From: a virus
DNA length: 64,000 bases
Strand: one strand, 5' to 3'
IMG/VR virus record: IMGVR_UViG_3300046787_000316
Span: 1 to 64,000 of that record
Notes under the pieces: model-generated
Told to the model about the DNA's origin: nothing
The model's input: the letters and a program-made list of their open reading frames with translations, nothing else
Database searches by the model: none
Shown here: piece after piece, positions 2,767 to 60,928 of the stretch
Numbering within the stretch: position 1 is the first letter of the stretch
Layout: each line of letters starts with the position of its first letter
Program-made: the position numbers and the translations under genes

Positions 2767-3979
2767 CTTTCAAATAATTATCTTTCATTTGTTCCCAAGT
2801 CATTCCAATTGCATCTACATAAAATAGAACCTCTGGTTTGATTTTACCTTCATCGTATAACTTAGTATATCGTTTAATTGCTTTATCTTTCCACCACTTT
2901 ACAGTGTAATCGTTACCATCAGCGAATTTCTTTTTAAGAATCAAATCCTTCTCTTCAATTTTAGATTGTAAGAATTCATTACCATTCTCATACATTTGTG
3001 CGAAATAAACACCTCTCTGAAATCCGTGGTCATAAGCGTTACCCTTTATACCCAATTCTTTGAAGATTGCTTGAATAATCTTTTGTTTGATTCCACTTAC
3101 AGGTCCGTTTCTATCGTAGCCCATATTAGCGCCATTACGTTCTCTCTCATCCATAATGTGTAACTTATACCACTCTGAACGATTTTCTTTTAACCATTGA
3201 TGCCATGGGTTATAAACTTTATCATCCGGCTTTGTAGAAATCTTACCTTTTGATTCTCCCAATGTTTTGAAATGTGGAATACCATTGTATTGAGAATGTA
3301 CTCCATATAAAGATGTTGTACCTACCCCAACTAATGGATTATCATATTTCTTTTTCCAATAATCTCTAACTTCCGGTGAAGTTGCCAATGCTGCGATTAA
3401 CTTGCCACCTAAGAAATTATAACCAAATGGTTGTGTAGATACAATAGTAGTTGCAATTGTAGTACAATTCAATTTACCATTTTTAAACTTATCTTCTTTT
3501 TGCCATCCAATGTAATTATCTCTAACTCCTAATGATGTAATATCCGAACCTAAGCAAATCTGTCCTAATATCTTACCACTAACTCTATCCTTCACATAAC
3601 ATTTAACATTACGACCTGGATTAGCCTGAAATTCCATTGTGTGAATCAATCTACGGATTTCAGTCCATCGAGTTGATTCTTTTGCATTATCATCTACGAT
3701 ATCAACATACGGGTCAATTGCTTCTATTTCAGCAATAGTTAACTCTCTGTTGGTGATATCAGTAGGTTTCCATAATGAATCATAATGAGATTGTAATACT
3801 GGCAACTTTTTCATATTACCAATTAAATCCTCATTCCACTCCATCCACTTTTTGTATAGAGTTTGCTCTTCGACTGACATTGTTCTTAGATAATCCAAAT
3901 TATCAATGAACTTCTTTTTCATTTCATCATAATCGAATTCTTCGGTATTAGTTTGTTCGCCTGTATCCCAAAATTTCAT
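2753..3979 (-). CDS. DUF4338 / Druantia DruA-like protein
   Basis: PGRNVKCYVKD..SGKILGQICLGSD, RDNYIGW, QPFGYNFLGGKLIAALA, GTTSLYG..SQYNG..HFKTLGESKG match my recollection of the DUF4338 pattern. Confidence 0.75.
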   Translation of the reverse strand: MKFWDTGEQTNTEEFDYDEMKKKFIDNLDYLRTMSVEEQTLYKKWMEWNEDLIGNMKKLPVLQSHYDSLWKPTDITNRELTIAEIEAIDPYVDIVDDNAKESTRWTEIRRLIHTMEFQANPGRNVKCYVKDRVSGKILGQICLGSDITSLGVRDNYIGWQKEDKFKNGKLNCTTIATTIVSTQPFGYNFLGGKLIAALATSPEVRDYWKKKYDNPLVGVGTTSLYGVHSQYNGIPHFKTLGESKGKISTKPDDKVYNPWHQWLKENRSEWYKLHIMDERERNGANMGYDRNGPVSGIKQKIIQAIFKELGIKGNAYDHGFQRGVYFAQMYENGNEFLQSKIEEKDLILKKKFADGNDYTVKWWKDKAIKRYTKLYDEGKIKPEVLFYVDAIGMTWEQMKDNYLKEVGR

Positions 3980-51623: not shown

Positions 51624-51654
51624 AAAAAAAAAGAGGGAACATTACTGCTCCCTC
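51624..51654 (-). terminator. Intrinsic terminator after the major capsid gene
   Basis: GAGGGA/TCCCTC stem plus a T9-type run. Confidence 0.8.
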
Positions 51655-54791: not shown

Positions 54792-55163
54792 TTATTGGTG
54801 GTTAACCAATTTATATTTAGTTTTGTATAATAAAGATACAACGGTATCGATATCATTTTGTATCCAACTATCTTGTAATTTTGGACTTGTTCTTAGTTTT
54901 GCAACTAAATCACATAATGTTTGGAAGTAATTAATAATGTTTTTAATATCATTATTCTTATCCAATGTTCCTATGCCTGATATTTGAATTAATCCTTCTT
55001 TACCTTGGTATGCTTCGACTAATCCATCTACTAAATCGCCGATTGAATCATAATAATCACCTAATGCAAGGTGAGCGGAATGTGAACCGATTCCTTTTAC
55101 GCCCCAATGAAATGAGTGAGCTTGAGTTCTACTCTGTAACAATAATGATGCTAATTCTTCCAT
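54792..55163 (-). CDS. Dps/ferritin-like four-helix protein (DUF5856-like)
   Basis: QAHSFHW...SAHLALGDYYD.I.DLVD.LVEAYQG...LYKL. Confidence 0.7.
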   Translation of the reverse strand: MEELASLLLQSRTQAHSFHWGVKGIGSHSAHLALGDYYDSIGDLVDGLVEAYQGKEGLIQISGIGTLDKNNDIKNIINYFQTLCDLVAKLRTSPKLQDSWIQNDIDTVVSLLYKTKYKLVNHQ

Positions 55164-56113: not shown

Positions 56114-56704
56114 TTAGTTTATTTCAATTATAATTTCTCTCATCAAATCTTGTGCTCTACACCATTTACCACATTCATCTGCGATTTTAGCCCATTGCTT
56201 TGATTCATTCATTGGCGCCATAAATGCTCCGTGTGTAGATGGATTTGAAACAAAATCCCAACCCACTAATTCAAAATCTTCTTGAACCATTACAGTCCCA
56301 TCTCTAAGTTCTTTAACAGAACCTAAACCTCTTGATGAAATTCCTAAACGAATATTGTTTTTTAACAATTCTCTCAAAATGTTTCCAGATGGAGTTGATA
56401 GAATTTCTACCACACCACATACATCATCCCCTTCCCAATAGATTTCTCTAATGTTATGAGATACATTTTTTAAATTGATTACGGGAGAATCTGGATGGTC
56501 TAACTCACCAAGAGCTCTTCTCTCTTTAATAAGTTGCTGATATTTGTTACACTCTCTTTCTAAGATGTCTTTTGGATATCTTCTATGATTTTGGTTTGGT
56601 GCTCCAGCTCTTTGCAAGATACCCTTAACTAAATAAGTTCCGTTTTCTTCCTGAACCATTTTAGCTTCAAACAAATGGGTTTCTATCAATAATCCTTTAT
56701 TCAT
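56114..56704 (-). CDS. Prohead protease (T4 gp21-like)
   Basis: NQNHRRYP, GELDHP, GISSRGLGSV, DFVSNPSTHGA. Confidence 0.96.
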   Translation of the reverse strand: MNKGLLIETHLFEAKMVQEENGTYLVKGILQRAGAPNQNHRRYPKDILERECNKYQQLIKERRALGELDHPDSPVINLKNVSHNIREIYWEGDDVCGVVEILSTPSGNILRELLKNNIRLGISSRGLGSVKELRDGTVMVQEDFELVGWDFVSNPSTHGAFMAPMNESKQWAKIADECGKWCRAQDLMREIIIEIN

Positions 56705-56705
56705 C

Positions 56706-57122
56706 TTACTTTATATCATTTTTAACTTTTTCGATTGCCTTATTGGTGATAGAAGTATCACTCCAAGCTTTCAAAAATATATCCTTTAATCCTTTTTCTA
56801 TTTCAGTATCGGATACCTTACCATCGTATGAATCAACTACTTTTTTAATTTGAGTTTGAACGATTGGCAATTTAACCATTTTTTTAGCAGTAGTATCATC
56901 GATACCTTTTTTTACATCAATCATATTTGAAACATCATTGATGAATTTTTTATCATCCGATAAGGTATCTAATATATTCTTAACGGCTTCGGTTGAATCC
57001 TTTCCACCATTAAAATATCGATATCCTCGTTCTGCTAACTCAACTATCCAATAAAAGATAATCTTACCTATAAGTATTGTTCCCAATGTGGTTAATATAC
57101 CTACGGCAAGATTCTCATCTAC
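56706..57122 (-). CDS. -1 frame extension of the 57119..57424 gene (N-terminal hydrophobic helix)
   Basis: Frame is open from GTA at 57122 (VDENLAVGILTTLGTILIGKIIFYW...); the only candidate start is TTG 57086. Confidence 0.7.
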   Translation of the reverse strand, partial: VDENLAVGILTTLGTILIGKIIFYWIVELAERGYRYFNGGKDSTEAVKNILDTLSDDKKFINDVSNMIDVKKGIDDTTAKKMVKLPIVQTQIKKVVDSYDGKVSDTEIEKGLKDIFLKAWSDTSITNKAIEKVKNDIK

Positions 57123-57424
57123 TTTTTTTTTTTACTTTCGTCTTTTCTTAACTTAGCTAAATCCGAACCTTCAATCTCACCATCTTTATCAACATCTAAT
57201 TTCTTTTGTCCTGCTGATAATTCTGCTTCATTATATCCTCGTAATTTACCTTCGTTTTTAGCTTGAAATGCTTTATCAACTGCATTAAAGAATTTTTTCT
57301 TATCATCATCAGACATATCTACGATTGATTTACCATGTCTATTCAACATAGTTTTGAACAATTGTTGATAATCTTCTTCTTCTTTAATTACTTGCTTTAC
57401 AAACTCTCTTAGTTGACTTTTCAT
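57119..57424 (-). CDS. Putative internal head protein with an EF-hand-like loop, ending in a slippery A11G-TAG
   Basis: MKSQLREFVKQVIKE...; DVDKDGEIEGSD loop at 57161-57196. Confidence 0.75.
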   Translation of the reverse strand: MKSQLREFVKQVIKEEEDYQQLFKTMLNRHGKSIVDMSDDDKKKFFNAVDKAFQAKNEGKLRGYNEAELSAGQKKLDVDKDGEIEGSDLAKLRKDESKKKK

Positions 57425-57455: not shown

Positions 57456-57998
57456 TTATTTTTTAAATTCACTAACTACTGAATAACCAGTCAAGTCAGC
57501 TTGCCTTTTACCTTTTGATTTTTCACTTTCAGGTTTACCAAATGCAAATGGAGTATTATATTCACCAGCAGCTCCGCTAGTATTCATCTCATCCACATCA
57601 GCTTTCAATTCAACATCTTTATACATACCACTCACCTTCGCCTCTAATTCATCTGCGAATTTCTTTTTAAGAGTTTGTAGTTGTTTTAAACGTTCAACGG
57701 CTTTCTTTTCGTTTGGAGTTCCTTTTGATTTTTTATACAATTCCAAAGTTTGTGCAATTGCATCAACGGTTTTCATATAATCGGTTTGAATGGATTTAAC
57801 TCCTCTCAATTCGTTTATCACCATTTCTTTTACGTGGTCTGGCAATCCTTTATGTTTGGTAGATGCAAAATCCTTAGCGGCTTTATCATCCATATCTTTT
57901 GATACTTTGGCAACTTCCGGTGATGCAGGAGTTTCACCTTTATCAGCGGCATGTACCATACCCATAAATCTTTGTTGTGCTTTTGATTGTGCTGGCAT
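57456..57998 (-). CDS. DUF3008-like N-terminal domain protein, putative head cargo
   Basis: MPAQSKAQQRFMG...KDFASTKHKGLP. Confidence 0.7.
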   Translation of the reverse strand: MPAQSKAQQRFMGMVHAADKGETPASPEVAKVSKDMDDKAAKDFASTKHKGLPDHVKEMVINELRGVKSIQTDYMKTVDAIAQTLELYKKSKGTPNEKKAVERLKQLQTLKKKFADELEAKVSGMYKDVELKADVDEMNTSGAAGEYNTPFAFGKPESEKSKGKRQADLTGYSVVSEFKK

Positions 57999-59176: not shown

Positions 59177-60928
59177 TTACTCTTTATCCAAATCTTCTGT
59201 TAAAATCCTTGTTTTATTACCTTTCATATCCTTAAATATTTCTTGATAATTGTTTCTTGGCTTATATTTTACAGAACCTTCTCTTTGTTTTAGAGTTTTA
59301 ATCCCCAATGGGTCACGCCCTTCCGGATGGTCATCTTTTCCATATCTAACCGGGTCTTTTGGTCTACCAACACCATCTTCTTCTAATTCGGATTTTAATC
59401 TATCCAATTCCTCTTCAACATTAGTCGGTCCTCCATCTACTCCCGTTTCTTTCGCCGGGTCTACACCTTGCGTTTCTATCGATGTTAATCTAAATGCTTG
59501 TTTGGTATCATCCAATACTTGCAATGTTAATTCATCTTGCTCATCTTTAGTCATCTTCATTACTGCTTCATACATCCATTCTTTGGAGAACATTTTAGTC
59601 GCTTGCATTTGTTGAATTAATCCTACCTTTGCAGTATATAATTCTACTTGCTCTTGCTCATAAATTTTCGATGGTATTGTAAGTTCAATTGAGAATTCCG
59701 TTAAACGGTCATCTTCAATCCCTTGTGCATATAAGTGAACAATTGCTATTTTGGTTAATTCTGAAATTAATACTCTCTGAACTCTCTCAATAGTCTTAGC
59801 GAATCGGATATCCATAGCTGCTAATGTAGCTTTACCATTTGTATCTTCTTCATACCCTAAATATGCTTTTGGAATTTTCAATGCCGCCATCAATTTACCT
59901 TTTAAGTAATTGATATCACCGGTCATATCGTATTCCATACCTTTTAATGTATCGATAGATGTCCCATTATCATTACCACGAACTGGCATATAGTAATCTT
60001 CGATTAGGTTTTGCATATTGTATTTCAAATTATACTCACCCGATTTTTCATCTATAAAAGGAACTTTCTTAGATGAATTGATAATTTTTTGCATGTAATT
60101 ATCAACTTCATTAGGTGGAATATTACCAACATCGATTTTAAAGATTCTCTTTTCAGGAGCTCTCATTACTCTGTGGATTAACATCGCATCTTCTAACAAC
60201 ATTAATTGTTTCCAAACTCTTCTACCACCTTCAATCATAGATTTTCCGTAAGGTAAGAAGTTTGAATCTGAATTTAAACGGAAGTGAGCTATTTCATAGT
60301 TTTCAAATTCCTTTTTATTTGTTTGAGGCGAACCACCATAAGGATTCATATATGGTGCGTAAATAAATTTAACTCTTTGTGGGTTTTCCGGGTCAAACCC
60401 TTCCACTCTACTCATTTCATAAGTAGATAATGGTAAAACGTTTACAATACCCAATCCTTCTGCCATTTCTAATTGTAAAAAGAAATCTCCGTATTTAACT
60501 AAGTTTCTTGTCCAAGGCCAAAGGTTAAATTCTACATTAAGAATATCGTAGAATAAGTTTTCTAAAATTTGTTTGATATTATCATCTGGGTGATGGATTT
60601 TAAGAACCGTACCCATTTCATTTCTTGCAGTACATTCATCGGCATAAACATCCAATGCGGATGCCATAATCGGGTCCATGTCCATTGAATCGTAATCTCT
60701 GAATAAATCTATACGAACTTGTTGGTATGCCATCGATGATTCAATACCACTATTTCCACCATATCCAAAATTACTTACTTTTAATCTTGCATATCTGTCT
60801 ATAAGATTGGTGGTCATATTTTGATACTCATCCGTATCGATTACCTTTACACCATTCTGTGTTTGTCTAACTATTGTGTTCGTTGAAAATAATTTCTGTA
60901 ACCTACCGAATACTGTTTTATCTGCCAT
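59177..60928 (-). CDS. Portal protein (T4 gp20-like)
   Basis: LEDAMLIHRVMRAPEKRIFKIDVGN.P, EDYYMP, IDTL.G, ALKIP. Confidence 0.96.
   Translation of the reverse strand: MADKTVFGRLQKLFSTNTIVRQTQNGVKVIDTDEYQNMTTNLIDRYARLKVSNFGYGGNSGIESSMAYQQVRIDLFRDYDSMDMDPIMASALDVYADECTARNEMGTVLKIHHPDDNIKQILENLFYDILNVEFNLWPWTRNLVKYGDFFLQLEMAEGLGIVNVLPLSTYEMSRVEGFDPENPQRVKFIYAPYMNPYGGSPQTNKKEFENYEIAHFRLNSDSNFLPYGKSMIEGGRRVWKQLMLLEDAMLIHRVMRAPEKRIFKIDVGNIPPNEVDNYMQKIINSSKKVPFIDEKSGEYNLKYNMQNLIEDYYMPVRGNDNGTSIDTLKGMEYDMTGDINYLKGKLMAALKIPKAYLGYEEDTNGKATLAAMDIRFAKTIERVQRVLISELTKIAIVHLYAQGIEDDRLTEFSIELTIPSKIYEQEQVELYTAKVGLIQQMQATKMFSKEWMYEAVMKMTKDEQDELTLQVLDDTKQAFRLTSIETQGVDPAKETGVDGGPTNVEEELDRLKSELEEDGVGRPKDPVRYGKDDHPEGRDPLGIKTLKQREGSVKYKPRNNYQEIFKDMKGNKTRILTEDLDKE

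Follow-up and report, generated by a model that had tools for sequence, protein, structure and literature searches.

Probable programmed recoding at an A-run joins two reading frames in the head module of an uncultured T4-like phage

Introduction

In the T4-like head module of an uncultured water phage (IMG/VR record IMGVR_UViG_3300046787_000316), a small gene, here called ORF-N, ends in a run of eleven A residues, a G and a stop codon, and a second open reading frame (ORF), ORF-C, opens at the same place in the -1 frame with no usable start codon. How, then, is ORF-C translated? The window analysed here comprises 64 kb of a genome of 137,364 bp, and all coordinates of the N/C locus refer to its minus strand. 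An initial annotation, made by inspection of the window, had proposed -1 ribosomal frameshifting of the type known from dnaX and from insertion sequences (IS). From a comparison of the locus with its relatives we conclude that the N-C site is with high probability one of programmed recoding, and the balance of the sequence evidence leans towards ribosomal -1 frameshifting of the dnaX/IS3 type as the dominant route.

Results

The slip site and its two reading frames

ORF-N (57424..57119) encodes the 0-frame product, a conserved small head-module protein of 101 amino acids (aa). Its 3' end reads AGT AAA AAA AAA AAG TAG, with the A11 run at 57133-57123 and the G at 57122. The slippery heptamer A_AAA_AAG (57128-57122) conforms to the pattern X_XXY_YYZ in the phase of the 0 frame, and the TAG stop codon of that frame (57121-57119) follows directly, overlapping the -1-frame codons GTA GAT. 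A TAA at 57134-57132, which shares bases with the A-run, closes the -1 frame directly 5' of the slip site; past this codon that frame reads KKK-VDENLAVGILTT... and stays open for 141 codons until the stop at 56708-56706. ORF-C (56706..57122) comprises, in the -1 frame, 138 codons and a stop, and the earliest ATG, GTG or TTG in its frame is a TTG at 57086, within a hydrophobic helix. A slip of one base backwards, which some ribosomes very probably make, would give a product of 101 + 138 = 239 aa with the junction ...SKKKK-VDENL. Re-reading of the sequence bore out the initial annotation on the A11G slip site with its adjacent TAG, on the -1 frame that is closed before the run and open for 138 codons after the slip, and on the lack of an ATG near the start of that frame.

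A first-order Markov model alone leads one to expect about one such A-run per window, and the weight of the argument therefore rests on conservation in relatives.

Conservation of the junction

ORF-N has 410 relatives in IMG/VR with identities of 72-82%, and ORF-C has many, with identities of 38-57%. The junction set was drawn from the window and its IMG/VR relatives (80 examined), and the junction was re-derived in every fetched locus. Among the distinct junctions that contain C, 33 of 36 are of the frameshift type, that is, with a run of A10 or A11 and with C in the -1 frame. All 33 have A_AAA_AAG or A_AAA_AAA in phase and a 0-frame TAA or TAG 0-1 codon past the run; the Val codon of the -1 frame is therefore nearly always GTA. 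The dnaX/IS-type arrangement recognised in the initial annotation (slip site, frame relation, adjacent stop and missing start) is kept in these 33 of the 36 junctions.

Likewise conserved is a -1-frame ORF that opens at the slip site and lacks its own initiation codon. No ATG, GTG or TTG precedes the hydrophobic helix in any of the 33 frameshift-type junctions, and 17 of them have none in the first 20 codons. The -1 frame opens with V-x-E-N/G-L, in which V1 is found in at least 90% of the sequences and E3 is invariant, with synonymous variation of the Glu codon (GAG/GAA). The motif lies ahead of every possible start codon and is conserved at the protein level, and the A-run must therefore be the point at which translation passes into the -1 frame.

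A census of 55 distinct N loci gave 27 with a short N, the A-run and C, three with an inserted domain in N, the A-run and C, three in which C has its own start, and 22 with N only, in which the A-run is absent and the ORF abuts the gene for the prohead protease. The A-run and C co-occur perfectly in these loci, with both present in 30 and neither in 22. Mapped on a tree of the neighbouring protease, the frameshift and C-less states require eight parsimony changes, at least four of which are forced by well-supported branches, and the association of the run with its cargo domain has therefore been re-tested several times by evolution.

One of the C-less loci abutting the protease gene, L059 (1130-1165), ends ...GGT AAA AAA TTA AAA TAA, and its run, AAAAAATTAAAA, resembles the decayed remnant of a slip site whose cargo domain has been lost. 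Upstream of the heptamer, at a distance of about 7 nucleotides (nt), GGGG or GGAG is found in about half of the frameshift-type relatives (e.g. L040, L042, L044, L063, L066 and L009). It may act there as a stimulator resembling a Shine-Dalgarno (SD) sequence, and it also codes for a conserved Gly.

A hairpin downstream of the slip site

The predicted main 3' stimulatory hairpin (57113-57060) is separated from the heptamer by a spacer of 8 nt and consists of 17 pairs with one bulge and of an apical 3-bp helix; weak outer pairs widen it to 57122-57051. Its minimum free energy is -23.0 kcal/mol over 78 nt, with a z-score of -4.59 against dinucleotide shuffles, none of 200 being equally stable. 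The complementary strand reaches only -10.3 kcal/mol (z -0.93), and the hairpin is thus specific to the strand of the messenger RNA. The spacer, the stem-loop and its restriction to that strand had all been pointed out in the initial annotation and agree with these values. The hairpin is the most stable of 1256 sliding 78-nt segments in the 7.6-kb head module, and it ranks 24th of 5327 in the whole window.

In a further control, codons were resampled synonymously while the peptide was kept (300 resamples for the window). The window gave a z-score of -4.9, with none of the 300 resamples as stable, and the 33 frameshift-type loci a mean of -3.07. The corresponding scores were -0.6, -1.1 and -0.9 for the three own-start loci, and +1.6, +0.5 and +0.8 for three in-frame fusions. 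Dinucleotide shuffles gave a pattern across loci that agrees with the synonymous-codon control. By these folding comparisons, selection on synonymous sites maintains the hairpin only at loci that depend on the shift.

When the structure of the window was projected on 19 relatives, 82.8% of the cells were paired, as against 38-51% for slid partners, a test that, with the window itself as the source of the structure, is somewhat biased in its favour. One stem pair is C-G in nine sequences and U-A in nine, by way of synonymous Leu (CTT/TTA) and Lys (AAG/AAA) codons. Homologues keep both the slip site and the stem, which is the conservation that had been proposed as a check. The hairpin had no frameshift-element match in Rfam. 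A reading of the hairpin and its U-rich tail as an intrinsic terminator was rejected, a terminator scan having found nothing on the minus strand; the tail codes for a conserved I-I-F-Y and is present also at loci that have no hairpin.

Natural variants of the N-C arrangement

In the own-start loci (L008, L019 and L027) a 2-nt insertion after A10 sets C in frame with an 11-residue leader, MIKLKS[IL]LIEV, the ATG of which overlaps the TGA of a longer N gene. Another arrangement came from a profile search of 1.84 billion representative proteins, which returned 69 relatives of C, about 11 of them in-frame N'-C fusions of 208-217 aa. In these, the ~66 N-terminal residues of N, which lack the EF-like loop, lead through a short linker (often KKK) and [L/I/M]-x-E into C, and L099 carries one of them in the same synteny as the window locus. 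The existence of natural in-frame fusions argues that the joined N-C protein is a real, selected product.

The in-frame fusion in L099 (IMG/VR 3300032285_000715, 3195-3235) keeps an A10 run, in the context TTG A10 GT TTA GAT GAA. A -1 slip at this run would meet a TGA after three codons, and no hairpin follows the run (z +1.6). L099 might make the short form by slippage, in the manner of dnaX and with the logic reversed.

Several relatives, among them L008, L009, L020, L029, L039, L053 and L081, carry one or two further domains appended in frame to N. One of these starts NPGLWANIRAK and one ends GLTNAQRSLKLK, and INE, VNE or KE sites often precede them (alignment A3 columns 100-261). Judged from these layouts, N is a modular carrier that takes other C-terminal modules in frame in some relatives.

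Weighing the alternatives

Ribosomal frameshifting is preferred because the 3' hairpin is kept selectively, the heptamer is in phase and the stop codon is adjacent. Several observations pull the other way. An SD-like stimulator upstream of the run, an optional feature for this class, is absent in the window, where the pre-run sequence is GACGAAAGT. The protease tree is shallow (~90% identical), and the relatives are not independent samples. L009 is of the frameshift type yet has no significant hairpin (z 0), and a subclade marked by VVSEG has a different, weaker fold (z -1.3 to -3.3). RNAalifold, run on 19 relatives, recovered only 11 outer pairs; it misses the inner stem because the register of that stem differs between subclades, and folding was therefore done per sequence with the synonymous-codon and dinucleotide controls. 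Finally, the run is A10 or A11 in every frameshift-type junction and never the bare heptamer that is sufficient for the ribosome.

This last observation is the hallmark of, and speaks for, programmed transcriptional slippage as the main mechanism, in which the polymerase would stutter on the T11 template and add one A, normal translation would give the fusion, and the hairpin would be incidental or have another role. Runs of at least nine A or T are established sites of polymerase slippage, as in Thermus dnaX, Shigella spa13 and IS elements (PMC5009743), and a homopolymeric A/T run of at least about this length stands at the frame junction. The genome otherwise avoids runs of 9-10: on the minus strand of the whole genome, homopolymers of 6, 7, 8, 9, 10 and 11 nt number 152, 52, 5, 0, 0 and 1, the last being the A11, which is the sole homopolymer longer than nine in the genome. 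This drop-off suggests selection against slippage-prone runs genome-wide except at the recoding site. (One A9 at 51624-51632 on the plus strand is the only homopolymer of 9-10 bases in the genome.) That L099 retains an A10 in its in-frame fusion points in the same direction.

On the other hand, synonymous sites show selection for the hairpin only where the shift is needed, and a 3' hairpin cannot stimulate slippage of the polymerase because it is transcribed after the slip. Nor does RNA slippage require the conserved 0-frame phase of the run or a stop codon 0-1 codon after it. The initial annotation had listed polymerase slippage as an alternative, and it survives in part: the sequence alone does not separate ribosomal from transcriptional slippage on A10-11, and we regard the latter as an unlikely main mechanism, albeit one to be taken seriously.

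Far less probable is that N and C are two independent genes, with C initiated at an internal TTG or another non-canonical codon or by termination-reinitiation, and with the A-run serving only as a Lys-rich tail. L008, L019 and L027 do express C from an ATG of its own, and gene callers choose the TTG at 57086. Against this stand the 17 of 33 frameshift-type loci without any ATG, GTG or TTG in the first 20 codons of the C frame, the remainder having one only inside the helix, and the protein-level conservation of V-x-E-N-L upstream of those codons; the own-start relatives, moreover, arose by the 2-nt insertion and lost the hairpin signal.

Least credible of all is an artefact or a mutational state, be it a homopolymer error in assembly or sequencing, a recent frameshift pseudogene or phase variation on the A-run, for although homopolymers are error-prone, A12 would give the one ordinary ORF that the initial annotation had allowed for, and more distant relatives have in-frame fusions, the same -1 offset recurs in 33 distinct junctions from independent metagenome assemblies, no fused (A12) form was found among these or the full 36 junctions or in 20 of 20 close-relative protein clusters, C is conserved at the protein level, and a selected hairpin accompanies the site.

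The N and C proteins

The N-terminus of N has the consensus MKxxQLKELVKQVVKE-E, ending in I/V-x-E. In the window the N-terminal 15 residues, MKSQLREFVKQVIKE (57380..57424), end in I-K-E, and M1, L5, E7, E15 and E16 are invariant in alignment A3. Internal proteins of T4 have N-terminal propeptides of 10-19 residues that target cargo to the core, and the T4 protease gp21 cleaves after L/I-X-E (PMC9026906). The N-terminal 15 residues of N are accordingly regarded as a candidate capsid-targeting propeptide.

An AlphaFold 2 (AF2) model of N has a mean predicted local distance difference test score (pLDDT) of 73 and comprises a helical hairpin and, after it, a helix-loop-helix. The loop of the latter, DVDKDGEIEGSD (residues 77-88; 57161..57196), has the pattern DxDxDGxIxxxD, with D77, D79, D81, G82, I84 and D88 invariant. 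What had been described as EF-hand-like in N is this conserved loop; the only Pfam match, to Dockerin_1, is below the cut-off (E = 0.0042), position 12 of the loop is D and not E, and the local pLDDT is 53-64.

The AF2 model of C is a helical bundle with a hydrophobic N-terminal helix (pLDDT 88.9, predicted template modelling score 0.84). The hydrophobic segment, LAVGILTTLGTILIGKIIFYWIV, spans C residues 5-27 (57042..57110). It had been described as a membrane helix: its hydrophobic character holds, but it contains an invariant Lys (K20, in addition to an invariant Y24), and in the model its C-terminal half packs into the helical bundle. Compared with N and the protease, C evolves at a much higher rate, and it is often lost. 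The C-terminus of C, (A/I)EKVKKDIK, is near-invariant family-wide despite the low overall identity.

At the transframe junction, V-D-E (57114..57122) is a candidate site for the prohead protease. A [V/I]-x-E motif is found in 36 of 36 junctions, and [L/I/M]-x-E takes its place in the in-frame fusions; the three-residue motif V-D-E is weak, and V at P3 is outside the published L/I consensus (PMC9026906).

Database searches placed neither protein in a described family. PHROGs and Pfam hold no family for N or C. A tblastn search of 50,697 phage records gave no homologue of C, and for N it matched only a 61-aa gene of Vibrio phages outside any head module, which is uninformative. For the fold of C no convincing match was obtained in a sequence-profile search of the PDB, with Foldseek against the PDB and BFVD, or in a VIA wide search. 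The best fold Z of 5.7 is within noise for helical proteins, and the only real match is an uncharacterised homologue of 204 aa. A protein atlas gave no lead above noise.

The head module around the locus

The gene for the prohead core serine protease of the T4 gp21 family (56114..56704; phrog_207, E = 3.7e-53; Peptidase_S77, E = 7.5e-30) starts 2 nt past the ORF-C stop, the end of ORF-C reading AAG TAA G ATG (56704-56708). Past it lie scaffold-like genes and the major capsid gene, and between these is encoded a ferritin/Dps-like protein of 123 aa (54792-55163, minus strand; DUF5856, E = 4.7e-13; phrog_858). On the other side, three small genes, one of them encoding DUF3008, stand between the portal gene (59177-60928; phrog_213) and ORF-N. 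The DUF3008 domain is N-terminal in a 180-aa protein encoded directly upstream of ORF-N (57456-57998, minus strand), the C-terminal part of which resembles short genes at the same position in immuto phages and Mel-JY01. N and C occupy the position held by gp67/gp68 in T4. By portal, the nearest cultured phages are the Microcystis phage Mel-JY01 (50%) and the Flavobacterium immuto phages (48%), and N and C were found in neither.

Discussion

A proposed route from the recoding site to the capsid

We propose that most ribosomes translate ORF-N and stop at the TAG, giving the 101-aa protein, and that a set fraction would slip back by one base, with the Lys-tRNAs on A_AAA_AAG. The adjacent stop codon and the hairpin 8 nt downstream would hold ribosomes at the slip site, and those that slipped would continue in the -1 frame to give the 239-aa N-C fusion; RNA polymerase slipping on the A11 may raise the yield further. 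The N part would then carry the fusion into the prohead core, where the neighbouring gp21-type protease would cut after the conserved V-D-E at the junction and free a variable helical protein of 135 aa with a hydrophobic N-terminus. The frameshift would in this way serve as a dosing device for an accessory head cargo.

The pattern of a conserved carrier with a swappable, protease-released cargo fits a logic like that of Gag-Pol. Under such a reading, which we put forward tentatively and hold to be somewhat less probable than its negation, the core-binding N would bring low, fixed copies of the fast-evolving cargo C into the prohead, the protease would release it at V-x-E, and the freed hydrophobic N-terminus would act on the host membrane or defences after ejection. 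In that case the capsid could be loaded by any of three interchangeable forms, with a frameshift, an in-frame fusion or a leader of its own for C. A weaker alternative gives N-C the role of a tether between the core and the cell membrane, from which cleavage would free the prohead. The case for capsid loading is lessened by the comparison with T4: hhalign of N and C against gp67 and gp68 gave a probability of 0.2% for both, and T4 internal proteins have no detectable homology to N or C. Moreover, the cleavage at V-D-E, the packaging and the role of C are deduced from the motif and the gene position only.

The recoding site is unannotated; gene callers give, beside the 101-aa ORF, a truncated one of 126 aa with its start inside the helix. 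In all 20 close-relative protein clusters C was called as 126 aa from the internal TTG, and it is thus mis-called wherever gene calls were seen. Closely related phages have the frameshift, in-frame-fusion, own-start and cargo-less forms side by side, with the hairpin only where the shift is needed; this natural experiment makes the locus a good system for studying how frameshift signals arise and decay. If the proposed biology is correct, the locus would show how T4-like phages set the number of copies in which accessory proteins enter the capsid. The cassette itself is of a textbook type, and in the literature searched we found no description of such a shift in the N gene family, nor was recoding reported there for any core or internal-protein gene of a T4-like phage.

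Comparison with known systems

A_AAA_AAG followed by a 3' stem-loop at a spacing of 5-9 nt is the -1 cassette of Escherichia coli dnaX and of IS3-family elements (IS911, IS150). The window locus shares with these the identical heptamer, the 3' stem-loop and two products with a common N-terminus in a fixed ratio, the latter being a prediction here; as in orfA-orfB of IS3, the shifted product would run on, as a fusion, into a downstream ORF that lacks a start codon. It differs in the lack of an SD-like stimulator in the window, in the extension of the run to A10-11 and in the 0-frame stop right behind the heptamer, and, whereas the shift shortens the dnaX protein, it would lengthen that of the window. 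Thermus thermophilus dnaX and Shigella spa13, with transcriptional slippage on A9-type runs, also have a long A-run at the frame junction and two products per gene (PMC5009743), but no 3' RNA structure is needed there, whereas the hairpin is selectively kept here.

The T4 internal proteins and gp67/gp68 are alike in their position between the portal and gp21-type protease genes and in being small and helical or acidic; further likenesses are an N-terminal leader ending in I-x-E, in N a candidate one, and a variable, often-lost cargo with a conserved targeting part. Unlike these, N and C have no sequence similarity to T4 proteins (hhalign probability below 1%, no PHROG match), and T4 uses no frameshift at this position. 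Retroviral and totiviral Gag-Pol would be a functional parallel, in that a cargo made in the minority is joined by a -1 shift to an assembly protein, enters the particle at low copy number and is then separated from it by a viral protease, albeit with no homology and, in the present case, in a DNA phage.

Structural proteins extended by frameshifting are known from other phages, namely lambda G/GT, T7 10A/10B and the major head protein of Lactobacillus phage A2 (PMC10885494; for A2, Garcia et al. 2004 as cited there). Common to these and to the window locus is a virion-assembly gene from which a -1 shift gives, or here would give, a short major and a C-terminally extended minor product in a set ratio. 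In those phages the genes are for tail chaperones or major capsid proteins, whereas here a small gene at the gp67/gp68 position, just before the prohead protease, is concerned, and the extension is a separate domain behind a protease-type site.

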